Shown here piece by piece: positions 3,178 to 51,448 of a stretch of 52,269 bases of DNA; the stretch's first letter is position 1, and every line of letters begins with the position of its first letter. Below the pieces are notes generated by a model. That model ran no database searches. It was not told the origin of the DNA and saw only the letters and a program-made list of their open reading frames with translations. The position numbers were made by a program, and so were the translations under genes. The DNA is from a virus (taxonomy: Duplodnaviria; Caudoviricetes), in the IMG/VR virus record IMGVR_UViG_3300008448_000122, positions 1 to 52,269 of that record; one strand, given 5' to 3'.

Positions 3178-3364
3178 ACTCATTAAATATATCGAACAAA
3201 TCAATTATAGCCCTGTCGATCAATTCGATTCTTTCATTTAAGATTTCTAACTTTGAGTTGGGTATTTTAGTTCTATCTATTGATTCGGCCAGAGTCGCTA
3301 AAGTCTTTATTGAGAACTCAGTGTTTCTAATATCTGAGTAGAGATCATTGTGGTTTATTTTCAT
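3167..3364 (-). CDS. Hypothetical protein (65 aa, helical)
   Basis: ORF overlapping both neighbours in operon fashion. Confidence 0.65.
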   Translation of the reverse strand: MKINHNDLYSDIRNTEFSIKTLATLAESIDRTKIPNSKLEILNERIELIDRAIIDLFDIFNEYED

Positions 3365-3905
3365 TTTTAACTTCTTCCAATACCATCCAAGTGCCTAAAA
3401 ATCCTAAGTTAGTGGATTCCCTCATGATCGGAAAAGCTCTTCCTCTAACTTTTGTTGTCTCTAAGGTATATACGTTTTGAACCTTGAACTCGGTTTCAAA
3501 CTTTCTGTGATCTCTTACTGATTCTGACCATTCTTTAACTACTCTGCTCATATCATCTGGGTGGATGAAGGATACCCATCCTAGGTCTTTTAGATCTTCT
3601 AATCCGCCTCCAACTAGCCTTGCCATCGCAGTATTGACCCAAATAAACTTACCATGTTCGTCTGCTTTGAATAGTGGCTTTTGAGTTAGGTGTTGGCTAG
3701 CCTCGATAAATAATGCTAAGTTTGTTACTGAGGCTTCTATCCTATCCATCTGGTCTTTTAAAGTTGACCCGCCATTATTTTTTGTTTCGTGCAATATTGC
3801 TTTTAACTTTCGATTTCCAAAAGCTAGCATTAAGGCCACTAGGGTTCCTACTGATGCAAGTACTTCATGCCAGGGAATTAAATGCCAAAAGTTAGTAGTC
3901 TCCAT
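3345..3905 (-). CDS. Membrane-anchored PAS-domain protein (candidate holin or lysis regulator)
   Basis: N-terminal hydrophobic helix, short coiled coil, then PAS/PAC signature (DEHGKFIWVN.AM..L.G...EDL...GW..FIHPDD). The holin role is inference. Confidence 0.8.
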   Translation of the reverse strand: METTNFWHLIPWHEVLASVGTLVALMLAFGNRKLKAILHETKNNGGSTLKDQMDRIEASVTNLALFIEASQHLTQKPLFKADEHGKFIWVNTAMARLVGGGLEDLKDLGWVSFIHPDDMSRVVKEWSESVRDHRKFETEFKVQNVYTLETTKVRGRAFPIMRESTNLGFLGTWMVLEEVKNENKPQ

Positions 3906-4409: not shown

Positions 4410-4736
4410 TCACTTGCCAACCATTTTATTTGCGATTGAAAGGTAAATTAGCCAGCAGACACAGCTTCCAAGTGAGCCATTAAATAGCATATCAAAAACT
4501 ATTTGATAGGGCCACATCTGCTTAAGTAAAAAATACTCTGCTGGGCTCCAGACTAATAGTCCCCACATTAGTCCCACCCAGAAGCCCATGCAGAGTATAC
4601 AATTCACAAGCTTTCCAAAGAATGGTATCTTAGCAAGAGCCAATCTAACGGGCTTGAAAATCGTTGAGTATACGACGATGTTAGCGGCTCCGAAAGTCGC
4701 TAGTGACCAGATAATAAAATTAGTTAGGTAATCCAT
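4410..4736 (-). CDS. DUF1360-like membrane protein
   Basis: Three hydrophobic segments; IF.P.R...GKLVNCILCMGFWVG pattern. Confidence 0.7.
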   Translation of the reverse strand: MDYLTNFIIWSLATFGAANIVVYSTIFKPVRLALAKIPFFGKLVNCILCMGFWVGLMWGLLVWSPAEYFLLKQMWPYQIVFDMLFNGSLGSCVCWLIYLSIANKMVGK

Positions 4737-5460
4737 GTGTCTTGTTGTGAATCAAAATTATTGGTAGCTGGCTTCTATGAGTCTTTACAAACTCATCTTT
4801 AGCCTTATACCATTCCTGTCTCATCTCGCCTGGAGATTCGTGCCTAATAATTATAGGCACTGCATAGTTAGAATAACCAAGTAAGTGTGCTTTGCTGGTC
4901 ATATGTATATCGTAAAAATCCCAAGGACCAGATAAGTATGACGGTTGTTTTAGTGTTATTGCTTTTAAGATTTTATAGGAGCAGGCTAAGAAGCAACCGT
5001 CTAAGCAAACCACTTGCCCATAAGGACCAAAATAATTTGGGGTCATGAAGACCTCATCTTGGCCTTGGAAAACGAATCCTCTGGAGGCTCCTAAATGTCT
5101 TGCGTTCCACCAAGCTCCATTGATTTTATTTGCGTCGTAGTAGGTAGATCCTGCCACTCCTACAAATCCTACATTTGGCTTCAAGCAGATTTGTAGTAGT
5201 CTCTCAAACTCGTGATGGTTGGTCATGATCTGAATGTCATCATGGCACATCACTATAATATCATTATCCTCTAACTTAGTCTCAATCTGAATCCAGTCTA
5301 AGTTTTGGGTATGTCCCTGATATATTGAAGGAGCATCGTAAGCTATAGCAATTCTCATATCTATATGAGATGAAGCTTTGTTTACATAATCCTTAATACT
5401 AGATAAGGATTTAGACTCTTTATTCAATCTACTACATATAGACAGGATAATTTTAGACAT
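4720..5460 (-). CDS. GT-A fold glycosyltransferase (family 2-like, StrF-type)
   Basis: IIVMCHDDI, GFVGVAGS, VVCLDGCFLA, WDFYDIH, IRHES motifs; start placed at 5460 to avoid overlapping terL. Confidence 0.82.
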   Translation of the reverse strand: MSKIILSICSRLNKESKSLSSIKDYVNKASSHIDMRIAIAYDAPSIYQGHTQNLDWIQIETKLEDNDIIVMCHDDIQIMTNHHEFERLLQICLKPNVGFVGVAGSTYYDANKINGAWWNARHLGASRGFVFQGQDEVFMTPNYFGPYGQVVCLDGCFLACSYKILKAITLKQPSYLSGPWDFYDIHMTSKAHLLGYSNYAVPIIIRHESPGEMRQEWYKAKDEFVKTHRSQLPIILIHNKTHGLPN

Positions 5461-7032
5461 ATGAAAAGTAATAGCCTGACGCTTGACGAAATTAAAGAAG
5501 AATTTCTTAAATGTAAAACTGATGCGGTATACTTCATATCTAAGTACATAAAAGTTTCCCACCCTAAAAGAGGGTTAGTAAACTTTGAACTTTACCCTTT
5601 CCAAAGAACAATAATTAAAGAGTTCTTTACACACAGATTTAATATACTTAGAAAGTTTAGACAAGCTGGTTGTACTACATTGATTGCTGCTTATTCTTTG
5701 TGGCTTTGTATGTTTAATCCTTACAAGACTGTGGCTATTCTGTCTAAAGGCGAGGCTGAGTCCACAGAAATTATTGATCGTATTAAATTGATGCACGCTG
5801 AACTTCCTGCTTGGTTACAACCTAAGATTATGGAAGACAACAAGCATACATTCAAGCTAGAGAACAAATCAGTAATCAAGTCTAAGGCTTCGGGAAAGCA
5901 ATCAGGTAGATCTATTCCTGGATCATTGTTGATCTTGGACGAAGCTGCATTCATTGAGCACATTGATACAATTTGGGCTGCTGCTTATCCAATCATTTCT
6001 ACTGGTGGATCTGTAATTGCTCTTTCAACTGTAAATGGTATTGGTAATTGGTTTCACAAGATGTATACTCAAGCTATCAATGGAGAAAACAATTTTAATG
6101 CAATTGATATTACTTGGAAGGAACATCCAGAATACTTTAGACAATCAGGGTATGAGCATCTATATGAATTGATGGCAAAGTATGAACCACCAGTCAATAT
6201 TGATGATTGGGAGAAGAATACTAGGGCTAACCTAAGCTTGAAAGAATGGTTGCAGGAATATGAAGCTAACTTCCTAGGAACTGGTGAAACTTACATTGAC
6301 GGTGAGATCCTAAGGCAGTTAAAGAGTGACGTAAATCGTGAATACAGAATCAAATACAATAATCGTATGCGCGTGTGGAAGGATCCTCAACCGTACCACG
6401 AATATGTATTAGCTTGTGATCCGTCAATAGGCCGAGAAAGAGATTATTCAGCCTTCCATGTTATTGATCTTTATAATGGGGAGCAAGTAGCAGAGTTTTA
6501 TTCGAACCGTACCCCAATCAACGAATTTGCTAAAATTATTGTAGACGAGGGCAGACTTTATAATACGGCTTATGTTCTGAGCGAAAGAAACGGTATTGGA
6601 AATAATTTAATTTATTTCTTACAAGAAAGTTTAGAGTATGAAAATCTAGTTATGGACGATAACCGTGAGATCGGTATGCAGATCACCCAGAAGAATAGGG
6701 AGGTCTTGTTGGCCGACATGGAGCATAATATAAGATCAAATAAAGTTAAAATTAACTCAGAAAGGCTAGTTGACGAGCTATTAACCTTTGTTATTGATAA
6801 AGATACCAATAAAATTAAAGCTGATACTAACTGCCATGATGACTTAATTATGGCTTTTGCTATGGCAATTAATACTTTTAATAAATTAAGAGAAAATAAC
6901 TTAATTGAAAGAGATACTTTAATTGATAACAGGAATATCCCACTTACCCCTATGCAGTCATATAAATATAAAGTAGTTACTGCTACTGGTAATGTAACCC
7001 TGGAAGATTATAAATGGCTAATAGGCAAATAA
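5461..7032 (+). CDS. terL: Terminase large subunit (T4 gp17-like)
   Basis: FELYPFQ adenine-binding motif, RKFRQAGCTT Walker A, LLILDEAAFI Walker B, ST.NG coupling motif, nuclease acidic motifs ACDPS.G and HDDLIMA. Confidence 0.97.
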   Translation: MKSNSLTLDEIKEEFLKCKTDAVYFISKYIKVSHPKRGLVNFELYPFQRTIIKEFFTHRFNILRKFRQAGCTTLIAAYSLWLCMFNPYKTVAILSKGEAESTEIIDRIKLMHAELPAWLQPKIMEDNKHTFKLENKSVIKSKASGKQSGRSIPGSLLILDEAAFIEHIDTIWAAAYPIISTGGSVIALSTVNGIGNWFHKMYTQAINGENNFNAIDITWKEHPEYFRQSGYEHLYELMAKYEPPVNIDDWEKNTRANLSLKEWLQEYEANFLGTGETYIDGEILRQLKSDVNREYRIKYNNRMRVWKDPQPYHEYVLACDPSIGRERDYSAFHVIDLYNGEQVAEFYSNRTPINEFAKIIVDEGRLYNTAYVLSERNGIGNNLIYFLQESLEYENLVMDDNREIGMQITQKNREVLLADMEHNIRSNKVKINSERLVDELLTFVIDKDTNKIKADTNCHDDLIMAFAMAINTFNKLRENNLIERDTLIDNRNIPLTPMQSYKYKVVTATGNVTLEDYKWLIGK

Positions 7033-24675: not shown

Positions 24676-25899
24676 ATGGAAGTAAAGTTTGAAATAGGAG
24701 TTGTAACTGATGTACAAGACATTTATAAACATTTTAATTTTACAGTTGAAATAGAGGGTGGCGAAAAGACATCAGTAATTTACACATCTCCATTTTTCTT
24801 TTTTGGAGGAGGCGGGCAATTAACTCCTCCAAACATAGGATCAAAAGTAATAGTAATGTTTGATAAGGTAAAAAAATTCTATTACTATGTCTCTACAATT
24901 GTTGGGATGACAAATCCAGATTGGATCTATGACCCATCATTAAAAGTTTTACCCTTAACTGCGGACCCAACAATTTATACCGATAAGAATATTCCACAGA
25001 AAGTTAATTACACTAATGAGATTGGATCTGGATTAAAAATATCTAGAAAAAAATTAAGAAAGTATATTGACGCTAAAGTTGAGTTGAAGAGTGAGTTTGG
25101 TAAAAAAATTGCTCTAGTAGACTCACCAACGAATAGTCATGTTTTGATGAGAAATGAACATGGCGACGGTATAAGAATTATATCCCACGATTGGCTGGCT
25201 GGCACAACTGGATATCCTCATCCCATATATCCAAGTAGGTCAATAATTGTATTCTCCAAAGGCCCACAGTTTTATACAACTACTAGGGGTCTGATGGATA
25301 TGAAGGTTGTTGATGGGACTGAATTTAATATCCAAAACTATTCTACTGGAGCATTCGGCCCGTCCGAGTATGAAGCTCCTCCAGTACAATCCTCATCTAC
25401 AGATGTTCCTCTAATACCAAGAAATAAAGATTATTCTTCAGCTAGAATAGGAAATATTAACATTAGAAGTGTAAACTCAGATGTTAATATAGCGGTTAAT
25501 GGGACTGAGAGTGAGATATATATTACTACACCAAAGGCTAGAGTTGAGATCAGAGAGGATGGAACAGTTTTAATCCACTCTGCTGCAACTATTAACTTAA
25601 GAGCTGATGGTGATATCACAATGAAATCTAATAATGGTAGCATAAATATGGAGGCTGGCGGAGGGTCTATAAATCTGAAATCTTCCTCTAACTGCAACAT
25701 CCAGTCTGGTTCAGAAGTTAATATTAAATCTTCTGCTGCTCTTAATACTCAAGCTGGTGGAGAACTGAGCTTAAAGGCAGGAGGTAATTGTAATGTTGAT
25801 GGAACTCAGATACATTTAAATTCTGGGTTCTCTACAGATGCTGGGGATGCTGCAACTCCAAGACAAATAGATATACAGAGAAACGCATACGGTGAATAA
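24676..25899 (+). CDS. Central spike protein (gp5/gpV/VgrG-like) with no recognisable lysozyme domain
   Basis: N-terminal OB-fold-like PP.IGS.VIVMF, C-terminal 8-residue beta repeats ending VDGTQIHLN. Confidence 0.85.
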   Translation: MEVKFEIGVVTDVQDIYKHFNFTVEIEGGEKTSVIYTSPFFFFGGGGQLTPPNIGSKVIVMFDKVKKFYYYVSTIVGMTNPDWIYDPSLKVLPLTADPTIYTDKNIPQKVNYTNEIGSGLKISRKKLRKYIDAKVELKSEFGKKIALVDSPTNSHVLMRNEHGDGIRIISHDWLAGTTGYPHPIYPSRSIIVFSKGPQFYTTTRGLMDMKVVDGTEFNIQNYSTGAFGPSEYEAPPVQSSSTDVPLIPRNKDYSSARIGNINIRSVNSDVNIAVNGTESEIYITTPKARVEIREDGTVLIHSAATINLRADGDITMKSNNGSINMEAGGGSINLKSSSNCNIQSGSEVNIKSSAALNTQAGGELSLKAGGNCNVDGTQIHLNSGFSTDAGDAATPRQIDIQRNAYGE

Positions 25900-40465: not shown

Positions 40466-43400
40466 ATGTTTAACCCAAACGATCTCTATACCACTTTAGG
40501 TTCTAACAAACTTCAGGCTTGTTGGACAAATCTTGTTACTAAGTTTGATACTAGTTCATTCTATAACTGGGAACAAGACAATCTTCCTATTTACGATTTA
40601 GATGAGAGAACTGCCTTTCTATGGGAAAGATTTGGGCATCCAACATCATCAGTAAATGGTGTGGCTTTAGTTGTATCTGCTGATGCCAATCCTGCAAATT
40701 GCAATACAAATATATTTAAAACTCTTAGTGGTTGTTTAAATGCAATCCCAGAAGTTATTAATTATCCAATAGTAGTTGAAGTTGCTAGCTTTGGAAATCT
40801 TGGAAATCTTTCTCTATCAAATAAAGTTTTTGGACCAAGAGGTTCAATAGAAATTATCAATAGAAATTATTCTAGAGTTAACTCTCTTATTGAATATGGT
40901 ACAAGTATTGAAAATTCTTTTGAGTATGTTGACTCAACTAGAAATGACTATCTTGCCTCCTCAGTTTCATCGTTAAATTATTTAGGATTATTTAATTTAG
41001 ATAGTATTCAAAAAGGTTTTATATCTGCCAGTGCCTTAGGTGCTGGATCTGCGGCAGTTTTTAGTAGCGTTACAGATTCAAGACTTTTAAACAATCTGAC
41101 TCTATTTACAAGAAAGCCTCAGATAACATATAATCAAAGATTAACAGCAGCCCTAGCCGCTAAGAATAGTGTAAGTGCCTGGACTGGAACAAGCCAACGA
41201 GTATCATTTAATGCCTACGAAAAGAATGCCGAAAGCTGGGATTCTTTAGATACTTATGATGCTTCTACTATAAATGAGATATCTAACTCAGTAATAAATT
41301 GGGGAGACAACGGTGTTAGACTTACTCAACCTATAGCTTATGGCAATAGATTACAATCTATAAAAGTTTATAATTGTGATGGGCCAATTTATATCAGAGG
41401 ATTTACTGTAGATGGTTCTGGGTATGGTGGAAGAGAGTACGGGATAGATGTTAGAAATTCTACAATAAATCTAGATGATTGTTCAGTAGCTAGATGTACT
41501 AAAGCTGGTCTTTATGCTGTCAACTCTAAAGTTCAATTAATTAGAAGTTTTATTGGATACAGAAATTATGCTTTCAATTCTGCTGGCACTAGAAATGATG
41601 TTTCTTGGACAACAAAAATAAATGGTGGTAGTAATGTTGTAAATAGAGATAATGTTAAAGCTGCTGGGATACTTGCATTAAACAGTGAGATAAAATTAAA
41701 CTCAGATCAGAATAGATTTAATACTTTACTAACTCAAGATTATTCTACTCTTACTGGCGGCTTTGCAACAACAGTATCTGGATATAATGCATTTGATAGT
41801 TTAATATGCTTGTCAAGAAATGATATTGGAATTGAATTAATAAATTCTAAATTAATTGGTGGACAGAGAGAACAAAATTTAGGATATGGTGATCCTTATT
41901 ATGGTGCTCAACAAGCTTTTATTGAATTAAACACTGAGGTTGGATTAAAGTTAGATAACAGTAAGTTTGATTATAGTGGTAGATTATTTTTAATAGGAAA
42001 CTTTAAGGGATTAGATGCAGTTCAATCAGAAATACTTTTAGATATATTAGAAGCCTCAAACAATCAGAAAGAAGCTATTAAACTTGAGAATAGTAAACTG
42101 AACTACAATAAAGAACTCTATCTCCCAGACACAACTGGCGATGGAAATAATATTTTATTGAAGTCTAATGGTACACATTTAAAGTTAATAAATTCTGTAG
42201 TCGAGCCAACCGATACGTCAGGTTATTACAACTACTATAGAAATGTAATTGCTTCAGGATCTTTTGGAACAACTCAACTTTTATCTGATCAAAGAGGTAT
42301 TCTACCTTCAATAGTTGTTGATTCAAATTCAAAGCTTAGATTGATTGGTGCTCAAATAACAAATCCATCAAGCTTCTGTGATGATGAGAAGTCTATATTT
42401 GGTGCAGCTTTCCATGTCAATGATAACTCACAGTTAATATTACAAGGTACAAGCTCTTATGCTACAAAGATCATTGGGCCAGATGGATTTGCCTATCAAA
42501 ATAATAAAGCTGGCTTGTACGCAAATAATAACTCAACCATAAAGATTCAAGGTCCGACCGTAATAGCTAAGTATGGCGTTGACGTTCTTTGTGACAACAA
42601 TTCTAACCTAGAGGTAACTCCACCAAAGAAAGTCGATGGCACTATAGATGTACAAGGATTTAATCTTTCAGGCCCAAGATCTCATACTTCTGTAGAGCTT
42701 CATTCAACTAGAGCTTGTCTCGTTGCTAATAATAATTCTGTTATTTCAATGAAGGATGTTGGAAGCTATCTTCCTTATTGGAATACTGGAGCTTATGGGT
42801 CCAGCATACTTCTAAGTGGAATGAATTATCCTATTGATTCAACTGGATTAAACTACGCTCAATATACAAGTGGTGGTTTCATACAGTTCTATCCAAATCC
42901 AAACGACTCTGCTGCTTATGGGACAGGAAATCCTGGAAGGGATACTCCAACAATTCCTGGAGCTGTTAACTTTAGTAGAAATGCTTTTGATTATAATTAT
43001 TTCCTAACTAGTATTATTGGAGATAAAGATAGCAATCAAAATTTCTCTGGGGTAACAGTAGGAGGAATGTGTGTAAGAGCCTTGAATGGTTCAAAGGTTG
43101 ATCTTGATAACGTACACTTCCCCTGTGGATGGCCTAATCCATCAGGAATAATCTATGAGTATAGTGGTCCTGAAGGAGTATGTTCAAGATTGTTTATATG
43201 GAACATTGCCGATCTATCACAATTAAATGCTAGATACATAACGGTAAGCGGATCACACCCAGCAGATGCCGCTTACTTTGGACCAAGCGGAACATATGGA
43301 TCTTTAAGCGGTGCGCCAGCAGGCACCCCAGATACAGGCTCTGTATCAATTTTAGATACTTATGGAAGAGCTACTAATCACCTTTACGGAAATTCAAGTG

Positions 43401-43858
43401 GCACAAATCAAGGTCCATTCAGATTATACTTCTCAGTTAATCCAGCTATAAACTGGGCCAAGTCTAACTCTACGACTGGCATAGATGGATTCATACCACA
43501 AATTTATGCTCAAGGTTACCAGTTCTCAGGCAACATGAATTTCCCTGGATCTGTAACTTCAGTGTATAAATCAATACTGCAAACAAGTTCAACGATAGTA
43601 AATACTTCTGGTTTCTATTATGCATCAGCGATTGTCGCAAGCCCAAATACAATCAGAGTTTTACTTGATGATTCTGCTGCAAACGCTTTTGCAAATGCGA
43701 AACATAATTCAACTGGAAAGTCTGGATTAGCTAGAGTTGTTGATTTCTACTTCCCGTTCACTGGTCAGTTTGGAGGAGACTCACTTGCAGATTCAGTTAA
43801 GAATAGAGGTAAGGGAGTGAAGTCAGTCAACACATTTGATCTGGAGAAGAATAACTAA
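40466..43858 (+). CDS. Tailspike-like protein with probable parallel beta-helix
   Basis: Repeated G(I/L).(L/A).NS.(I/V) rungs; N/S/G-rich. Confidence 0.72.
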   Translation: MFNPNDLYTTLGSNKLQACWTNLVTKFDTSSFYNWEQDNLPIYDLDERTAFLWERFGHPTSSVNGVALVVSADANPANCNTNIFKTLSGCLNAIPEVINYPIVVEVASFGNLGNLSLSNKVFGPRGSIEIINRNYSRVNSLIEYGTSIENSFEYVDSTRNDYLASSVSSLNYLGLFNLDSIQKGFISASALGAGSAAVFSSVTDSRLLNNLTLFTRKPQITYNQRLTAALAAKNSVSAWTGTSQRVSFNAYEKNAESWDSLDTYDASTINEISNSVINWGDNGVRLTQPIAYGNRLQSIKVYNCDGPIYIRGFTVDGSGYGGREYGIDVRNSTINLDDCSVARCTKAGLYAVNSKVQLIRSFIGYRNYAFNSAGTRNDVSWTTKINGGSNVVNRDNVKAAGILALNSEIKLNSDQNRFNTLLTQDYSTLTGGFATTVSGYNAFDSLICLSRNDIGIELINSKLIGGQREQNLGYGDPYYGAQQAFIELNTEVGLKLDNSKFDYSGRLFLIGNFKGLDAVQSEILLDILEASNNQKEAIKLENSKLNYNKELYLPDTTGDGNNILLKSNGTHLKLINSVVEPTDTSGYYNYYRNVIASGSFGTTQLLSDQRGILPSIVVDSNSKLRLIGAQITNPSSFCDDEKSIFGAAFHVNDNSQLILQGTSSYATKIIGPDGFAYQNNKAGLYANNNSTIKIQGPTVIAKYGVDVLCDNNSNLEVTPPKKVDGTIDVQGFNLSGPRSHTSVELHSTRACLVANNNSVISMKDVGSYLPYWNTGAYGSSILLSGMNYPIDSTGLNYAQYTSGGFIQFYPNPNDSAAYGTGNPGRDTPTIPGAVNFSRNAFDYNYFLTSIIGDKDSNQNFSGVTVGGMCVRALNGSKVDLDNVHFPCGWPNPSGIIYEYSGPEGVCSRLFIWNIADLSQLNARYITVSGSHPADAAYFGPSGTYGSLSGAPAGTPDTGSVSILDTYGRATNHLYGNSSGTNQGPFRLYFSVNPAINWAKSNSTTGIDGFIPQIYAQGYQFSGNMNFPGSVTSVYKSILQTSSTIVNTSGFYYASAIVASPNTIRVLLDDSAANAFANAKHNSTGKSGLARVVDFYFPFTGQFGGDSLADSVKNRGKGVKSVNTFDLEKNN

Positions 43859-46443
43859 TGTCTACTACTTTTTTTGATTCTGTTTATAAGTACAATGATC
43901 CTGTAAGATATTTTAAGGCTAATGATCCTTACTACTTTGAAGTTGATAACATACCACTAAAGCAGCTTCAAGAGAACTGCAACTTCTTAAAAGATCAAAT
44001 ATCAAAGCTATTAACAGGCGGAACAAGCACAAGTTCTATTACAAGTCTTGGATCTGTAGGAAGAGATAATTTTACAGAACTACAGCCTTACGTTGCTGGG
44101 CTTGATAATAAAGTAAAAGTAAGACCTGGAAGATACACAGCTAGAATAAATGATGCGTATTCAATTCAGCCTTTACAATTCCTAACTCAGGTTGCCGGAT
44201 TTAATGTTGGGGAACTAAAGTCCTTTCAATATGCCAATCAAATAAATTCACTATACAATAGCACTGTTCAAAAGATAAGAAGCACTGTCGCTTCAGATGC
44301 TCTTGGAATGAACGGTCTTTTAGAAAGAACATTTATATATTCTGTAAGAGATATTAGTAGAAAGTCTCCATTCTTAGTTAATACAGGAACTTGCCCAGGA
44401 TATTCAAACAGAGAAAGCAATGATCAATTCAAAGCGTATCCTAATTGGACTGGAGAATTATTTAATGCACTGTCAAATCCAAACGAAGAGTTCTCAGTAA
44501 TATCTCCTTTCTTTGGATCTGTAGGAAGCACAATAGCCACAGGAGAGTTTAGAGATTTACCAAAGCTAGAAACTTTATTTATCAAGAGATGGAGAGGTAT
44601 AACAAGGACTGCAATTGTTAATGTAGAGGAAGAACTAGAGATTGAAATACCGCCATTTAGTGATGATGATTTCTTCTACTACGATGAGAACAATCAGAGA
44701 CAGCCAATAACAGCCAGTCAAAGAATAGACTTAGTATTTATTTATTCTAAGCCAATTGATACGTCTTCGACCACAATTAATAAATTTGAAAATCAGAACG
44801 GCCAAGGTTTCTGTGGAGTAAACAATGGCGTTCCAACTGCTCCAGTAAAAATAAATAAGCCAGTTCTAGGATTGGTTAAAGGTGCTGGTCTTGGCGTAAA
44901 CTACCATTTCATCGCTGGTCCCGGCATTCCTCAACCACTAAACAAGTCTACAACTCAGATAAATGGATCTGATGAGTATCCAATGATCCTTGCTAGCCCT
45001 GCTGATTCTTCAGGGGCCAACATGGGATTTGGAAATATTAAAGGCTCATTCCCCTCACCAGACGATTTGATGAATATTGCTCCTCTTCTAACAGAAGATT
45101 TAGAGCAATCAAGTCCAGCATTGATCGGCCAATCAATAATGCCAGTTGCTTATGTGGTCGTTAGAAAGAATGCTAACGTAAATGAATCCTCAAACAACAT
45201 CATTGAAATAGCGGATCTAATTGACATCAGACCATTCTTTAGAACAACAGAATTAGCTTATAATGAAAGAGCAGGGTTAGCTGCTGCTACTCCACAAGTT
45301 TCTTTAGCTAATCCAGTTGCCACAGAAGGGTATGTTGATTATGTTGCAAAAGCTTTAGATAATAAGATTTCACAAATCACTGGTGTCAATACTCAACAAA
45401 CAAATATTCTAAGTGGCTTGCCAAGAATAATTGGTGCTGGCTATGTAATGGGTGGAACTGCTTACGGTGTTGAAGGAACTCTGAGAGACTTCTTATTAAA
45501 GACTTCTAACCCAAATGCAGTAAACACAGATGTTAGATCTAATTTTGATTATCCATCTAATATACTAATTAATACCAGACCAGACTGGGATTTAGCTACA
45601 TGGCTGTCTGATGGTGATATTACAGGCGGCTCTCCTGGAAGTACAAAGTATGATTGGATAAACTACTCCATAAGCAAGGTTCCAGATGGTTTTGGTATTA
45701 GTGGTTTAAATACTGCGAATGAATTTTTAAGCGATAACTCAACAGCCTACGGACCAATAAGTAATCAAGTAAGAGATTACAATTCTAGCGGAAGACCTCT
45801 AGGATTTGGTACTTGGCCTTCCCATGAAGTTGTAAGTTCTAATGGTGGATATTACACTTTGTATTATGTATCTAAAACTATTAAGATTAATAGGTCCTTG
45901 GTCCCATGGATGGCCGATTATAGAGTTAATGTTAGACTACATAACTGCGTCCCTCTATCCTCTAGAATATTAGCAACAGAAAATAATAATATCTCTAGGT
46001 ATGGTCAAGGAGCAACAATATCAAATGTTTGGGTCTCCAAGAAAAGAATATCCCAAAATGATTTTGAATTTACTATATTTGTTGGATGGACTGCGGATGA
46101 TGTGTTTAGACAAGAAGGAAGCACATTCCTACTTCCAAAGATAGCTAGAGCTAGAAACACAATCGGAAACAACACTCAAAGACCAATAAATTATAATGGC
46201 TTTGCCGTAATAACTAAAGATATGTTAGCCCAAAGAGATATAAATGATGCATACCCATGGGCTAACGGTAGACCAAGCACTACATCTTCAAATTTTAATC
46301 CATCCTATTATAGTTCTGGAGGAAATAAGATTGGTGTTGCGTTATATCCCACTGTAAGTTTTGAAGTTATAGGAATACCAGAAAACTACAATCCAGGACA
46401 GAACTTAAATTCCGCAAATCCATATCTCACAATCATAAGCTAG
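43858..46443 (+). CDS. Hypothetical tail/fibre protein (861 aa)
   Basis: Operon position; DN.PLKQL.EN..FLK and IDIRPF motifs. Confidence 0.68.
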   Translation: MSTTFFDSVYKYNDPVRYFKANDPYYFEVDNIPLKQLQENCNFLKDQISKLLTGGTSTSSITSLGSVGRDNFTELQPYVAGLDNKVKVRPGRYTARINDAYSIQPLQFLTQVAGFNVGELKSFQYANQINSLYNSTVQKIRSTVASDALGMNGLLERTFIYSVRDISRKSPFLVNTGTCPGYSNRESNDQFKAYPNWTGELFNALSNPNEEFSVISPFFGSVGSTIATGEFRDLPKLETLFIKRWRGITRTAIVNVEEELEIEIPPFSDDDFFYYDENNQRQPITASQRIDLVFIYSKPIDTSSTTINKFENQNGQGFCGVNNGVPTAPVKINKPVLGLVKGAGLGVNYHFIAGPGIPQPLNKSTTQINGSDEYPMILASPADSSGANMGFGNIKGSFPSPDDLMNIAPLLTEDLEQSSPALIGQSIMPVAYVVVRKNANVNESSNNIIEIADLIDIRPFFRTTELAYNERAGLAAATPQVSLANPVATEGYVDYVAKALDNKISQITGVNTQQTNILSGLPRIIGAGYVMGGTAYGVEGTLRDFLLKTSNPNAVNTDVRSNFDYPSNILINTRPDWDLATWLSDGDITGGSPGSTKYDWINYSISKVPDGFGISGLNTANEFLSDNSTAYGPISNQVRDYNSSGRPLGFGTWPSHEVVSSNGGYYTLYYVSKTIKINRSLVPWMADYRVNVRLHNCVPLSSRILATENNNISRYGQGATISNVWVSKKRISQNDFEFTIFVGWTADDVFRQEGSTFLLPKIARARNTIGNNTQRPINYNGFAVITKDMLAQRDINDAYPWANGRPSTTSSNFNPSYYSSGGNKIGVALYPTVSFEVIGIPENYNPGQNLNSANPYLTIIS

Positions 46444-46444
46444 T

Positions 46445-49400
46445 ATGTCTCTTTTTTCAAACTGTGGAGAATATTTACCAGGGCAAGAACCCCCAACTAC
46501 ATCTAGTATTCCTACGGTAACCCCTAACGTATTAGTTGTAAGAGAAGAAAGAGATATAGTCTATAGGCTTCCCCCAGATAGAAGGCCGCCTTGGCAGTTA
46601 AGATGGAAGTGTGAAGATAGATCTCCTAGTCCTTGCCCTCCCGGTACTACTGGACCAGGAATATTTCCTAGAGAGTGTTTGCCTTGTGATGGTGAATTTG
46701 GAAACCCAAGTCCAGGAGCAGATGGCTGCGATTATGTAGGAAGAGAGCAATGTGTACAACAATGCCCCTCGCAAATTGGTTGTATTCCAATACCACCAGT
46801 ATATAAATGCGATTGTACCGAAGTACCTTGTCCCCCTGGGCAGACTGGGGCAATCATAGATTGCGAGTGCTTACAGTGTAATCCCATAGGATCCGATGTT
46901 TTTGGTAATCCTATTTATGAGCCTGGATGCGTTTATCCAACCAGAGCCTCATGTGAAGAAGTATGTGTAGATTCAAACACTTGTGACGGTGGAGTTACCC
47001 CAACTAATCCAGCAACAGGACGAGGAACACAAAAGAGCATATGTGTAACTCAGAGGATAAGTCCCTGCCCTCCAATAACTGGACCAAACATTTCAGTCAC
47101 TGGAGCAATTTATGATAGAGAATGTTTGCCATGCAGGGCAATCTTAAACCGTGATGGGACGGTAAGATATGAATTCCCAACAAGAGATAGCTCAGGAAAT
47201 CCATTACCACCAATAGCTGGTGATCCAAATGTTCTTTGTATAGAACCTTCTGCTTGTAAGGCAAGTTGCTTAGATCAAAATACTTGTGGTGTAACTCAAT
47301 CGGAGCCAACAGAGCCAGATCCATTCTATGCTTGTATGACGGTCTACTCTGAAGGATGCGGAGATCCATTAGATCCAGAATGCATATTTATAGGTAATAT
47401 AAATTACAAAGAATGTTTACGCTGCAATCAGGCTCAGGACGGTTCTTGGATTCCTCCAACAGAATATTATGGTACATCTTATCCTAATATTCCTCAGGGA
47501 ACATCACTTGATCAGCAGTTTGAAGCTTGTGTTCCATTATCTTCATGCCAGCTAAGTTGTGATATTGAAGTAAATTGTGATCTATCTTGCCCCCCTGCTC
47601 TTCCTAGGTATAGATGTAAAGTTATAGAGCAAGAGTATTGCCCTGAGGTTGGGACTGTAGGGCCACTATCCCGAAGATTAAAAAGTGTAAGGAGAGAATG
47701 TGAAATCTGCCTACCAGGAACAAATCAGGAAGGGTGTGATTATGAAAGTGATTCTTTGTGTAGAGCAAGTTGCGCTGATGAAGAGTATCCATGTATTGGA
47801 GTAGTCCAAAATAATAATACTACAAATAACATAAGATATTCAAGACAAGAACTACAAATCCCATGTGAGCCGCCATTCATAGGAACACAGCTATACCAAA
47901 GAACTTGCTCTGAGATTCAATGCTCACCGGCAGACCCAGAATGCGTTGCCTACAGTTTTCCAGATATTAATAGTTGTACAAATGGTTGGCAATCTGAACC
48001 TGGAATTTGCATACCACCTAACTCTAATACTACAGTTTCCCAGGTATCAATTACTAGTGATATAGAGAATAATGTATCTCAATTTCCAACTGAAGGATTC
48101 GCAGGGAGCACTCAAGGAGAAGGGGGGTTTGGGGATACCCTAACGCCGGAACAACAGAATCCAGTACAAAGAGAGACAGTAATCTCAAGTCCAACTTCTT
48201 TATTAAATAAACTTTTGACTGGACTGGGAATTATTAAAAATCAAAAAGTAATTGATACAGAGATTCTTGCCTCAAAGAAAGAGGTTGAGGTACAAAAAGT
48301 AGGAAGGTCAGCAACTACCCTTCACCCAGCGTACAACTTTGCAAATATAAGTAATGATATTCTTCCTGAAGTTGCAATGGTAGATAATGATTTATTTAGA
48401 GATATATTTGCTGACAGAGTTGCCAAGGAAGTTAGATATGTGCTAATTAGAAACACTCAAAACTTACCTTGGGATGAAAGACCTATTCAATCAATAACTG
48501 ATGAGAAGTTAGCACTGTCTTTAAACCCTGTTCTTCTTAAAGCTTTAAACTCTATCCATTATCCAGATGGAGAAAAGATACCATTAACAACTCTTTTAAG
48601 ATCTATTAAAAGACATATGTTACTAGGTAATCTGGAGGATTTTGATGTTCAATACTTTATTGAACTAGAGAATAAACAAAAAGAAGATAAGTTTAATGTT
48701 TATCTAAAGAGCACAGACAAGACCTTATTAGAAGCTGCGGCTTTAACCTTAATAAAAGAAAAGGAAGTAATAATAACTAAGGAAGATAAAGATCCTTATA
48801 ATGCAAGAAGGCTTAGAAGACAAAAGAGATTGAATGTAGATATCAAAACCAGAACTTGTATTATTAAAGAAGATGGTACTTCTTGCGATCTCCCTGTTGA
48901 GAACGCTGGATTGCTAATAGGCAAATCAAGTGGAAGTTCTATAGTAGATGCTAAGATAATAAATGGTGTTGGAGATGGTTATTACCTGTACCTAAATGTT
49001 GATGGTGAGTGCCTGCCCTATAGCTATGAGACTAATGAGGAAGTTACCAGATACCCTCCTCAAAATATTAGATATCAAGCTTTGAAAGTTCTAGGTGAGA
49101 ATCCAGATATAACAATAAAAGCTAAATCTTTAAGTGGGTCACATGAGTTTACCTCAGGAATAAATTTAACTATAAACTATCAGCCAATGTTCCTGAGATT
49201 GGATTTAGAGTCCGTATCTTCAACTCCACAATCAAGCTACTTAGTAGACAATACAAGCGCAAACTATTTGTTGATGACCAATGAGTCCGAAATAAATGAT
49301 TACTTAAATACAAATGGATTCGCTACCACAAGAGTTAATATAGATTATAGAGATCCAATTTTAAAGTATATCTTTGATACTTCAACTCTAACTTACAATC

Positions 49401-50179
49401 AGAACGATGTTGATTTCAATCAAATGGAACCTAAGTCGGCTAGCGGATCTATAAGAGCTTCTACAAATGCTGTCATAAGTAGAACACTTCCATTTGCTCT
49501 AGTGATTGTCCCAGTTAGAGGATCTGCATTTAATCCATTTAATGGAATCTCAGATATAGAAAGCATAGATGATAGAGTTACTAGAAAAGTAACTATGATG
49601 CCAACTATAAGCCAGAATGACACTGGAAGCTTCCTATCTCCACTAGAGGAGAAAGTCTTATTTGAAGAGACGGGAACTTTTAAGGTAGGCTTAAAAGAAA
49701 CTCCAGATTCAAACGCTATAACTTATAGATTTAATCCCTCTGCTCCTTACCTAACACAAACATTCTATAATAAAGATTTTCAAACCTACTCTACCGTACC
49801 AAGTGGTGTGGGGTCTTTATCCTCTTATGGGCTATCCCATATGGTTAAAAACTCTTTAGACTACATCATTGATACATATGAAGCTAGCGATGTAAAGTGG
49901 TTTGATATTTACAGAAGACTCTCAATGACAAAGTTTGTACAAGTAATGTACGATTCAAATGATGAATTACTTGATCAGATTGCAAACTCATTTAGACCTA
50001 ACGTACAAATATCAAATATTTTTATTGAAGAGTCTGGTAATAATACTACTGGGGTAAACTATGGTGGTTCTTTATATTCAGTAACTGAAGACTATGGTAT
50101 ACTTCCTGAAGATGAGAGAGTTGTAATTTCTGTTGAAGACAGAACATCTATTTTAAATAGTCCTCCACCAATAGAATAA
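46445..50179 (+). CDS. 1244-aa protein with N-terminal cysteine-rich repeats
   Basis: About 50 Cys in the first ~525 aa forming ~6 repeats; remainder Cys-poor. Confidence 0.85.
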   Translation: MSLFSNCGEYLPGQEPPTTSSIPTVTPNVLVVREERDIVYRLPPDRRPPWQLRWKCEDRSPSPCPPGTTGPGIFPRECLPCDGEFGNPSPGADGCDYVGREQCVQQCPSQIGCIPIPPVYKCDCTEVPCPPGQTGAIIDCECLQCNPIGSDVFGNPIYEPGCVYPTRASCEEVCVDSNTCDGGVTPTNPATGRGTQKSICVTQRISPCPPITGPNISVTGAIYDRECLPCRAILNRDGTVRYEFPTRDSSGNPLPPIAGDPNVLCIEPSACKASCLDQNTCGVTQSEPTEPDPFYACMTVYSEGCGDPLDPECIFIGNINYKECLRCNQAQDGSWIPPTEYYGTSYPNIPQGTSLDQQFEACVPLSSCQLSCDIEVNCDLSCPPALPRYRCKVIEQEYCPEVGTVGPLSRRLKSVRRECEICLPGTNQEGCDYESDSLCRASCADEEYPCIGVVQNNNTTNNIRYSRQELQIPCEPPFIGTQLYQRTCSEIQCSPADPECVAYSFPDINSCTNGWQSEPGICIPPNSNTTVSQVSITSDIENNVSQFPTEGFAGSTQGEGGFGDTLTPEQQNPVQRETVISSPTSLLNKLLTGLGIIKNQKVIDTEILASKKEVEVQKVGRSATTLHPAYNFANISNDILPEVAMVDNDLFRDIFADRVAKEVRYVLIRNTQNLPWDERPIQSITDEKLALSLNPVLLKALNSIHYPDGEKIPLTTLLRSIKRHMLLGNLEDFDVQYFIELENKQKEDKFNVYLKSTDKTLLEAAALTLIKEKEVIITKEDKDPYNARRLRRQKRLNVDIKTRTCIIKEDGTSCDLPVENAGLLIGKSSGSSIVDAKIINGVGDGYYLYLNVDGECLPYSYETNEEVTRYPPQNIRYQALKVLGENPDITIKAKSLSGSHEFTSGINLTINYQPMFLRLDLESVSSTPQSSYLVDNTSANYLLMTNESEINDYLNTNGFATTRVNIDYRDPILKYIFDTSTLTYNQNDVDFNQMEPKSASGSIRASTNAVISRTLPFALVIVPVRGSAFNPFNGISDIESIDDRVTRKVTMMPTISQNDTGSFLSPLEEKVLFEETGTFKVGLKETPDSNAITYRFNPSAPYLTQTFYNKDFQTYSTVPSGVGSLSSYGLSHMVKNSLDYIIDTYEASDVKWFDIYRRLSMTKFVQVMYDSNDELLDQIANSFRPNVQISNIFIEESGNNTTGVNYGGSLYSVTEDYGILPEDERVVISVEDRTSILNSPPPIE

Positions 50180-50180
50180 T

Positions 50181-50501
50181 ATGCCTTTAGCTGTATTAAA
50201 TGGTGATTTTAGTTTAGGTCATTGCTGGCCCCCAGCACCCTCAATAACAACTTCACAGCAGGATGTATTTTGCCATAGTATTCTAGTTGTTGTTGAAGGT
50301 GATACATTTAGTCCTCATCCTGGGCCTTGTGGCGACTCCTCTACTCACGTTCCAAAAACAGTTCCTGGGATTGGGAGCCCTACTGTTTTTATAGGCGGAA
50401 AAAAAATATACAGGGACGGAGACTTATTAAGTTGTGGAGACGTAGCCAAAGTCCAATCTCATACAGATGTATTTATAGATGGGCTAGGAGCTAAACCTTA
50501 A
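50181..50501 (+). CDS. PAAR-family spike tip protein (T4 gp5.4-like)
   Basis: GD.S.GHCWPP, GD...PH..PC, H......GSPTVFIGG....R.GD..SCGD. Confidence 0.93.
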   Translation: MPLAVLNGDFSLGHCWPPAPSITTSQQDVFCHSILVVVEGDTFSPHPGPCGDSSTHVPKTVPGIGSPTVFIGGKKIYRDGDLLSCGDVAKVQSHTDVFIDGLGAKP

Positions 50502-51085
50502 TGGTATCTAGCATAGAACAAACTGGATACGGACTGTTCCCAGGATCTGGAACTTATGGAAGTATAATATTTACTAGAAGATTGTATACAATTGGATTTG
50601 GGCAAAATGCTACAACAGAATTTGATAAGTGGTGTAATTCTGTAAGTGTCTATCCTTCTTATTATACAAGAGTTATTGAGGAAGGATCTAACAGACAATT
50701 TATAAATAATAATGAGACTGGTGCCCCGTCACTTCCAACCACAGTTTTATCTGAAATTAATGGCTCTTCTGTACTTCAAAATTTAGCTTCAAGCTCATTG
50801 AAAGAACCAATCAAGTTATACTTTAAACTTAAGGATAACTATTCATTTCCTTCTTGGTTAAAATTTCAGGAAGGAAAGGGAAGAATTTATGGGAAACCTC
50901 CAAATTCAGCATCATCCTTTGACCCAATAGTAATTAATGATACTAATAAAAGAATTGAAATGTATCTAGTTCCTTTTGGTCAAAATTTTAATGAGCCCTT
51001 CGATCAAGAAACTGCAATTTTATTTGGCTATGCTTATGCCTTAATAACCTATGACAGTATTGTTGATACACCTTGCCCTACATGA
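50501..51085 (+). CDS. Protein with putative Ig-like segment
   Basis: FPSWLKF....GRIYGKP resembles the putative-Ig (He_PIG) core. Confidence 0.6.
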   Translation: MVSSIEQTGYGLFPGSGTYGSIIFTRRLYTIGFGQNATTEFDKWCNSVSVYPSYYTRVIEEGSNRQFINNNETGAPSLPTTVLSEINGSSVLQNLASSSLKEPIKLYFKLKDNYSFPSWLKFQEGKGRIYGKPPNSASSFDPIVINDTNKRIEMYLVPFGQNFNEPFDQETAILFGYAYALITYDSIVDTPCPT

Positions 51086-51163: not shown

Positions 51164-51448
51164 ATGCGCGGAATCACATTAAGCGAAGACTTTGTTAAGC
51201 AGATTGTTGGAACCCACCCCAGCAAGAAGATCTCAGAATCAACCGAGGCTCCACAAGCTGAAGCCCACGTTTGCCCTCTATGCGAATCACAGCTAGCTGA
51301 ACCAATCTCAGAAGAGAGAATTCAGGAGCACGTTGATTACTTCCTAGACGTTATCAACGAGAACTTTGATATCGTTGGCGAAGAACTAAATGAGGAAGAG
51401 GAAGTCGAGGAGACTGAGGAAGAGGTCGAAGAGTCAGACGAAGAGTGA
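51164..51448 (+). CDS. Small acidic protein with CxxC...H
   Basis: HVCPLCES...EH; poly-Glu tail; GGAG upstream. Confidence 0.78.
   Translation: MRGITLSEDFVKQIVGTHPSKKISESTEAPQAEAHVCPLCESQLAEPISEERIQEHVDYFLDVINENFDIVGEELNEEEEVEETEEEVEESDEE

Follow-up and report, generated by a model that had tools for sequence, protein, structure and literature searches.

Disulfide-bonded virions have already been documented among the tailed phages: in cyanophage Pam3 a disulfide links a single N-terminal cysteine of the fibre to the baseplate wedge, the fibres being released by dithiothreitol (DTT) (PMC9942802), while Agrobacterium phage Milano possesses a disulfide network, with DTT lowering the stability of its particles (PMC10491603). 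Structural proteins of tailed phages can be stabilised by disulfides despite cytoplasmic assembly, and the bonds in question are single ones, lying within or between ordinary folds. Here we describe a protein of a different kind, encoded in a 52,269-base window that constitutes the whole of the IMG/VR virus record IMGVR_UViG_3300008448_000122 (Duplodnaviria; Caudoviricetes). The gene (P0001 in our numbering) occupies positions 46445-50179 (+) of the window, belongs to the tail/baseplate block, and is listed among the open reading frames (ORFs) with a product of 1244 amino acids (aa), in which an N-terminal motif is followed by an array of cysteine-rich modules, a linker and a C-terminal domain. 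Unlike the single bonds of Pam3 and Milano, the tandem modules of this protein are predicted to hold around 25 intrachain bonds, and we find no sequence relation to either phage (no tblastn match in the phage collection). We propose, with a probability of roughly 0.55, that the protein forms a stalk, stapled by disulfides and variable in length, in an appendage of the baseplate.

Small domains in variable copy number, placed between an anchor and a conserved distal domain, are a familiar design in phage fibres and bacterial adhesins, where the tandem spacers are Ig-like, FN3 or collagen-like. The window protein shares this architecture, yet such spacers are built around the hydrophobic core of a beta-sandwich, whereas the module described here would be a disulfide-held fold that is new to Pfam, PHROGs and the PDB. 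While modular phage-fibre spacers and single virion disulfide cross-links are both known, neither the three databases Pfam, PHROGs and PDB nor the literature searched describes a tandem, dedicated mini-domain of disulfide type in a phage tail protein, or the family defined by the C-terminal domain, and we found no description of tandem cysteine-rich modules in phage tail proteins in that literature, which mostly does not extend to subscription journals. An earlier reading of the letters of the window, to which we refer as the original prediction, had considered such cysteine density to be rare in phage proteins; disulfide-bonded virions as such are, however, documented in Pam3 and Milano.

The cysteine-rich array

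The protein contains 54 cysteines, 50 of which lie within residues 56-522, the others being C7 and three (805, 814 and 856) in the last 720 residues. Set against the other 29 tabulated ORFs of the window, in which 110 of 13922 residues are cysteines (0.79%), the finding of 50 cysteines in 467 residues has a binomial tail probability of 2e-39, and the array as a whole is composed of 10.5% Cys, 12.4% Pro, 8.0% Gly and 0.0% His. Cysteine spacing divides it into six units, at residues 56-113 (8 Cys), 122-180 (10), 200-281 (8), 297-382 (10), 391-450 (8) and 474-522 (6). Units 1-5 follow the pattern aromatic-x-C1-x6/7-C2(P) ... C3-x2-C4 ... C5-x5/7-C6-x3-C7-x5/6-C8, with unit 6 being degenerate, and each module possesses one C-x2-C, in a C-x-P-C-x-G-like knuckle. 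An iterated hidden Markov model (HMM) of the module recognises units 1-5 of the window (domain E 8e-16 to 3e-6) but not unit 6, although it does detect the orthologous unit 6 of a close homologue (P0005).

With full module boundaries, and all on the plus strand, the canonical eight cysteines are present in module 1 (residues 53-113, 46601-46783, E 8e-16) and module 5 (residues 388-450, 47606-47794, E 3e-14), and module 3 (residues 197-281, 47033-47287, E 3e-10) also has eight, with a long C4-C5 loop of 34 residues. Module 2 (residues 120-180, 46802-46984, E 1e-13) and module 4 (residues 295-382, 47327-47590, E 3e-6) hold ten each, the extra pairs being C124 + C140 and C313 + C382 respectively, while the degenerate module 6 (residues 472-522, 47858-48010), delimited by its cysteine spacing, has six. 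The array is preceded by the N-terminal motif MSLFSNCGEYLPGQEPPT (46445-46498, +), which holds C7, the sole cysteine of the N-terminal part to stand outside the even-numbered array, and is followed by a cysteine-free, poorly conserved linker (residues 526-574, 48020-48166, +; 14-80% identity among homologues) and by the conserved C-terminal domain (residues 575-1244, 48167-50176, +) that defines the family. Reading the N-terminus by eye reveals no signal peptide, although no predictor was run.

The observation on which the original prediction was built is therefore confirmed, whereas its interpretation, as discussed below, is supported in part. The prediction had placed about six repeats at 46604-48019, corresponding to residues 54-525 of the 1244-aa protein, and its hand counts of 8, 10, 8, 10, 8 and 6 cysteines agree exactly with the spacings given above, as does its description of the C-terminal region as poor in cysteine. 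Its claim of novelty has also withstood scrutiny, in that the module is real and the whole protein has no match in Pfam (E <= 0.1), PHROGs or the PDB (best PDB sequence E 0.7). A profile of the family likewise finds no match among PDB sequences, and in the ESM Atlas there is no usable match for the array, while the C-terminal part obtains sub-threshold scores of 0.84 only.

Distribution of the module in the family

Far from being an oddity of a single phage, the array turns out to be the variable region of a large family. A word-indexed search recovers four relatives only, all of them full-length and 83-44% identical to the window protein, and 44 of the 50 array cysteines are invariant across these four homologues down to 44% identity; locus scans add two further members, L001 (996 aa, three 8-Cys units) and L003 (849 aa, one unit). 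A family profile made from the window form, L001 and L003, when run against 1.84 billion cluster representatives (50% clustering), matches 311 of them at E <= 1e-3 (143 at E <= 1e-30), the best 150 of the 311 all matching over the C-terminal ~600 residues. In addition, 47 unique locus proteins match an HMM of the C-terminal domain. The family consensus, drawn from 134 sequences, consists of F-x-C-G-E-x-x-P-G near the N-terminus, a Pro-rich lead, the cysteine modules, the linker and the C-terminal domain. The window protein carries the N-terminal motif as MSLFSNCGEYLPGQ; the motif is almost invariant in 5/5 close homologues, and a regular expression for it matches 112 of 153 sequences, the remaining 41 being mostly fragments.

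The number of modules varies greatly between members. Of 193 family sequences, 104 contain modules that the HMM detects, 200 in all and 1 to 6 per protein, and 13 of the 112 full-length representatives have no cysteine at all between the motif and the C-terminal domain. Relatives may thus contain none, one (L003), three (L001), six (the window, counting five plus the degenerate one) or at least 16 modules. The last figure is from L064 (313-7815, +), a 2501-aa member with 111 cysteines ahead of the C-terminal domain and the longest array that we have seen, in which minimal four-Cys units of the form [WYF]-x-C ... C ... C-x3-C are separated by Pro/Thr/Gly-rich linkers. In word-indexed searches with the module profile, 15 matches were obtained among longer proteins, 15/15 of which also carry the C-terminal domain, and there was no match among proteins of 29-151 aa, with the best 150 of the 311 family matches listed. 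As these searches are word-indexed, they provide weak evidence that the module stays within the family.

Parity and co-occurrence of the cysteines

If the cysteines of the array are bonded to one another, their numbers should bear a trace of this pairing across the family. We considered the 112 of 153 sequences that remained after dropping 41 in which the start, the N-terminal motif or the first part of the C-terminal domain was missing. Of these 112 full-length representatives, 104 have an even number of cysteines in the region from the motif to the C-terminal domain; among the 99 in which this region contains cysteine, the number is even in 91 (binomial 3e-19, relatedness uncorrected). Close homologues illustrate how such evenness is kept: P0005 has lost the cysteines 124+140, 313+382 and 488+511, and has gained six others, among them two that substitute for C488 and C511 of module 6, so that the count for the N-terminal part stays at 51 in 5/5 close homologues.

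A similar picture emerges within modules, for which we examined the 165 unique modules that hold all of the anchors C1, C3, C6 and C7, modules lacking an anchor having been dropped. C4 and C5 are both present in 139 and both absent in 23, with C4 alone in 3 and C5 alone in 0 (Fisher 3e-25), and in the three with C4 alone the C5 sits just beyond the distance window used. Likewise, C2 and C8 are both present in 150 and both absent in 9, with C2 alone in 5 and C8 alone in 1 (Fisher 1e-10). The four-Cys units of L064 retain exactly C1, C3, C6 and C7, and 4-, 6-, 8- and 10-Cys versions of the module all exist among the relatives. The even numbers and paired extra cysteines that the original prediction had remarked on in six units consequently hold family-wide.

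Taken across the family, parity and co-occurrence favour disulfides over metal sites. The simplest reading would be that two core bonds join C1/C3 to C6/C7, with C2-C8 and C4-C5 as optional bonds and with occasional further pairs, such as the extra cysteines of modules 2 and 4 in the window.

Predicted structures

An AlphaFold model of module 1, for which 50 module sequences of the window and of 24 loci were aligned, has a mean predicted local distance difference test (pLDDT) of 93.3. It contains strands at 2-6 (with C1 at 4) and 24-28 (with C3 at 26, and C4 following at 29), and a helix at 48-54 that carries C6 (51) and C7 (55), suggesting that the module is a beta-hairpin plus a helix bearing the C-x3-C. 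Foldseek finds no match for this model in the PDB. A comparison by VIA-align with 48,161 chains returns six rows at Z 2.0-2.4, comprising a thrombospondin-type domain, four Kunitz-type chains and one unrelated enzyme; the Kunitz-type superpositions are weak (Z 2.1-2.4, rmsd, i.e. root-mean-square deviation, 2.1-4.1 over 35-39 residues). The module profile scored against PDB sequences gives conkunitzin-S2 (E 0.13) and anntoxin (E 0.42), both non-significant, in alignments where C6-x3-C7 falls on the C-terminal C-x3-C of the Kunitz domain.

Of the solved folds, the Kunitz/BPTI domain comes closest in layout, though at scores that are non-significant: it also has ~60 residues with a beta-hairpin followed by a C-terminal C-x3-C helix, which cysteines from the N-terminus and second strand can staple, and tandem Kunitz arrays occur in eukaryotic proteins. 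The differences are nevertheless considerable, as the window module has eight cysteines, would contain C2-C8 and C4-C5, and belongs to a phage tail protein in which we see no signal peptide. Kunitz disulfides follow the pattern 1-6, 2-4, 3-5; the proposed core of C1/C3 to C6/C7 could match 1-6 and 3-5, whereas the co-occurring C2-C8 and C4-C5 differ from 2-4. Furthermore, Pfam Kunitz_BPTI (PF00014) matches none of the 50 modules at E <= 10 and is not found on the whole protein. We therefore regard the module as having a Kunitz-like layout of weak resemblance, with membership of that family unsupported. We rejected EGF, TSR and other cysteine-rich families of Pfam in the absence of any Pfam match for the whole protein and for the 50 modules, and a metallothionein-like metal sponge on account of the defined hairpin-helix prediction and the conserved aromatic residues.

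The C-terminal domain (residues 575-1244) is predicted from an 89-sequence alignment as a mixed alpha/beta fold with high confidence (pLDDT 89.7; predicted template-modelling score, pTM, 0.90). No PDB match is found by Foldseek at E <= 1e-3, nor is there one in a further PDB structure search or in BFVD, and a wide VIA-align comparison gives Z <= 2.6 only, confined to one helical stretch (553-614); given that the model comprises 670 residues, matches to a single domain or sub-domain may be missed by these searches.

A proposed disulfide-stapled stalk

These observations lead us to suggest that the protein is a structural component of an uncultured freshwater myovirus, in which it would form an appendage in the region of the baseplate. 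Its N-terminal motif (F-x-C-G-E-Y-x-P-G), with the sole unpaired cysteine, would probably be the attachment end, and the conserved ~670-aa alpha/beta domain at the C-terminus would form the distal end. Between the two, the array would consist of autonomous domains of ~60-90 residues, joined by Pro/Gly-rich linkers, each being a beta-hairpin and a C-terminal helix held by disulfides: C1 and C3 of the hairpin would be stapled to C6 and C7 (C-x3-C) of the helix, with C2-C8, C4-C5 and occasional further pairs as add-ons. Such an array could serve as a stiff and chemically robust spacer or stalk, the length of which evolves by gain or loss of modules, and its fast-changing surface loops could also contact surfaces. 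The invariant lone cysteine of the motif may form an intermolecular bond, in the way that is reported for the fibre cysteine of Pam3 (PMC9942802), and could hence act as a comparable tether.

The timing of bond formation requires some explanation. The compartment in which tailed phages are assembled is reducing, and we found no viral thiol oxidase, for which reasons the ~25 disulfides per chain are most likely to form once lysis has released the particle into oxic water. Searches for thioredoxin and glutaredoxin turned up none in the window and none in five related records (53-95% estimated completeness); the same records yield no Erv1/ALR, but the control genomes were also silent at the threshold used, making that search uninformative, and DsbA-type families were not searched. 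The phage thioredoxin or thiol oxidase gene that the original prediction had thought worth looking for is thus not in evidence in these records, which would agree with, but does not prove, oxidation outside the cell. Mucus binding and redox triggering, which the prediction had also raised, are speculative.

A bolder form of the same idea, which we put forward tentatively and think more likely wrong than right, would have the array leave the cytoplasm unbonded, with the disulfides locking the modules after lysis and so setting the reach of the appendage, perhaps also arming the particle, while the lone N-terminal cysteine tethers the protein covalently to the baseplate. The module would in that case represent a new class of disulfide mini-domain of prokaryotic viruses, having gained its cysteines step by step, from 4 through 6 and 8 to 10.

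Several considerations weigh against the proposal of a disulfide-stapled stalk. Odd cysteine counts are found in 8 of 112 representatives, 52 of 194 modules fall outside the simple cysteine classes, and both the parity and the co-occurrence statistics treat related sequences as independent; moreover, the joint absence of C4 and C5 could partly stem from a few old loop replacements. Disulfide bonding is deduced from counts alone, and the correct formation of ~25 bonds without a catalyst would be demanding, given tail assembly in a reducing cytoplasm. The term 'stalk', too, is an argument from architecture. Lastly, the family is found in no cultured phage, a tblastn search with three members (P0001, P0036 and P0137) against INPHARED having matched for none of the three, and the presence of the protein in virions is a deduction from sequence.

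The findings have implications beyond the window. Given that the family which carries it is large and is widespread among uncultured viruses of aquatic habitats, the module is a general design rather than a curiosity, and it sharpens the question of how particles that come out of a reducing cytoplasm gain many correctly paired disulfides. The natural series of ~60-residue modules with 4, 6, 8 and 10 cysteines offers a clean test system, and the module may furnish protein engineers with a small, stable scaffold bearing variable loops. The 670-aa C-terminal domain, with its confidently predicted fold and no solved relative, is a structural target for work on the baseplates of uncultured phages.

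Alternative explanations

The alternative that fares best is that the array is itself a binding organ, the modules of which display rapidly evolving loops towards a surface of the host or of the environment (a receptor, a polysaccharide or particles) in the manner of knottins or Kunitz domains, rather than being a passive spacer, and this would be compatible with disulfide bonding. The evolution of the array bears on this possibility. No tandem repeat is detectable in the array at the DNA level, indicating that the units are old and diverged, and each window module is closer to modules in other proteins than to its own neighbours (the best outside match of module 3 is module 2 of L001), which likewise implies that the array is old and that module types are maintained, a point in favour of binding. 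Identity at non-cysteine positions is lower in the array than in the C-terminal domain of P0005 (27 vs 56%), P0004 (48 vs 70%) and P0002 (71 vs 93%), with the linker (residues 526-574) being the least identical region in P0003-P0005. At the level of strains, 33 single-base differences in the gene were recorded among the contigs from four runs, and nonsynonymous ones are concentrated in the array (7 nonsynonymous and 11 synonymous, against 1 and 14 elsewhere; Fisher 0.046). These seven, out of eight in the gene, all lie within residues 66-138, in the loops of modules 1-2, and none removes a cysteine.

Since the array diverges faster while its cysteines are kept, the loops appear to change fast on a fixed cysteine scaffold, a pattern that fits an exposed surface and that we count in favour of our own proposal as well. 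However, relaxed constraint on a spacer would produce the same pattern, and the strain-level signal, with 8 nonsynonymous sites and p 0.046, is small and counts as a further point against our own proposal. The 13 of 112 members without cysteines in the region, the conserved C-terminal domain as the more usual candidate for distal binding, and the absence of any lectin or adhesin family in Pfam scans of the whole protein and the 50 modules also speak against a dedicated binding organ, which we consider possible but doubtful. The individual changes, at 46640-46856 of the window, are P66S, Q110E, P128A, two changes at P131, A136V and I138V, while C64 undergoes synonymous change only.

A second alternative is that the modules are zinc or iron mini-domains folding in the cytoplasm, with Cys4 sites at two per 8-Cys module. 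A reducing compartment of assembly would suit such sites, as would the knuckle in each module and the fact that eight is the commonest cysteine count (21 of 112 proteins), and the PAAR family, encoded next door, and phage spike tips are metal binders. Yet the even counts, 91 in all, divide into 55 that are 0 modulo 4 and 36 that are 2 modulo 4, and the 6- and 4-Cys versions of the module have lost exactly two cysteines together, a change that would break a Cys4 site and leave the disulfide model intact; the extra cysteines are gained or lost as pairs too. In addition, there is a single CxxC per module and no histidine, Pfam zinc-ribbon and treble-clef families match 0/50 modules, and the structural neighbours of the module, weak as they are, are disulfide-rich extracellular domains. 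The original prediction had left the choice between disulfide and metal stapling open: the family statistics favour the former, and the 2-modulo-4 counts, paired losses and lack of histidine make the latter unlikely.

A third explanation derives from the position of the gene, and would make the protein a cargo or accessory of the spike tip that is functionally tied to PAAR, as the original prediction had supposed. The prediction was correct in placing a PAAR gene directly downstream (50181-50501, +; 106 aa; PF05488 35.7 bits vs cutoff 27, E 1.1e-8; phrog_281 E 1.9e-20), a position shared with PAAR-linked proteins such as those of the T4 gp5.4 neighbourhood and the cargo of type VI secretion system (T6SS) PAAR proteins. 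To place this adjacency in context we compared gene order over 47 unique loci, scoring PAAR where an ORF start lay -80 to +400 nt from the stop of the family gene. A PAAR ORF follows the family gene immediately in 32 of the 47 loci, but the arrangement forms part of a longer conserved order. A homologue of the 861-aa upstream neighbour (43858-46443, +) lies directly upstream in 40 of 47, one of the 1130-aa neighbour (40466-43858, +) is present in 34 of 47, and one of a 94-aa acidic protein with a CPLC motif (51164-51448, +) occurs within 1.5 kb downstream in 42 of 47. Neither of the two large neighbours has a match in Pfam, PHROGs or the PDB, and the 94-aa protein belongs to no Pfam family. 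PAAR adjacency consequently belongs to lineage-wide synteny and is by itself no sign of a physical link.

Further evidence on the spike tip comes from the 194-aa ORF that follows PAAR (50501-51085, +). In several relatives the PAAR protein is 260-326 aa long, and BLASTP identifies the 194-aa ORF as a homologue of the extension that PAAR bears at its C-terminus there (302-aa PAAR protein of L003, E 2e-10; 269-aa protein of L004, E 4e-7). PAAR and its extension are therefore split into two genes in the window and fused elsewhere, and a joint action of the two proteins at the spike tip is probable. The description of this ORF as Ig-like in the original prediction finds little backing, He_PIG reaching 18 bits against a cutoff of 24. 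While the extension indicates that the tip is elaborated in this lineage, the cargo hypothesis is weakened by the location of the probable VgrG/gp5-like central spike gene (24676-25899, +; 407 aa; phrog_9992 'baseplate assembly protein', with a sub-threshold match to DUF2345, the VgrG C-terminal domain), some 25 kb from the PAAR gene. The window protein itself has no VgrG/gp5 features and, in Pfam, no adaptor, toxin or enzyme domain, and a 1244-aa chain on a piercing tip would be sterically unusual. We hence consider a role as spike-associated cargo improbable. The 1130-aa and 861-aa neighbours, which accompany the window gene in most loci, have similar N-terminal motifs (…EQDNLPIYDLDE… and …EVDNIPLKQLQE…), which may serve them in common for attachment.

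Finally, that the modules should be true Kunitz/BPTI-type protease inhibitors, shielding the virion or blocking host proteases, is scarcely credible in spite of the conkunitzin-S2, anntoxin and Kunitz-type matches described above, because none of the scores is significant, Kunitz_BPTI and Foldseek are negative, C2-C8 and C4-C5 are unlike the Kunitz 14-38 bond, and a conserved reactive-site loop is not apparent.

Genomic context and host

The record has an estimated completeness of 44%. Its annotated genes include those for the large terminase subunit, for a portal of T4 type and for helicase, primase and exonuclease, together with genes for a baseplate hub protein, gp25-like and gp6-like wedge proteins and a Tail_P2_I-like protein of 1305 aa. 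The gp25-like, gp6-like and Tail_P2_I-like genes lie upstream of the gene at 46445-50179. With this gene the large genes of the baseplate block come to an end, and those for PAAR and the 194-aa protein follow.

With regard to the host, the nearest portals of cultured phages are only ~33% identical and belong to Flavobacterium and Microcystis phages, the closest being from Flavobacterium at 33%. Among 185,579 species genomes the sole match is L068 (3001-4677, +), on a 30-kb contig of a metagenome-assembled genome (MAG) labelled Altibacter sp. (Flavobacteriaceae), and this may be a phage contig binned into the MAG. Together, the Altibacter match and the Flavobacterium-phage portal are a faint pointer to Bacteroidota. 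The window gene is found in near-identical form in 20 runs from 14 studies labelled freshwater or lake metagenome, three being possible sources, and no RNA data set is listed among those that contain it.

Two features at the beginning of the window deserve mention. Positions 1-2000 have a GC content of 0.51, compared with 0.29-0.43 for the rest of the record, and contain short overlapping ORFs only, with no Pfam, tRNA or Rfam match. Ahead of the terminase, on the minus strand, are genes for a PAS-domain protein (3345-3905; PF08447, E 1e-8), a sensor domain that is unusual in a phage, and for a glycosyltransferase-like protein (4720-5562; PF13712, E 5.5e-9).

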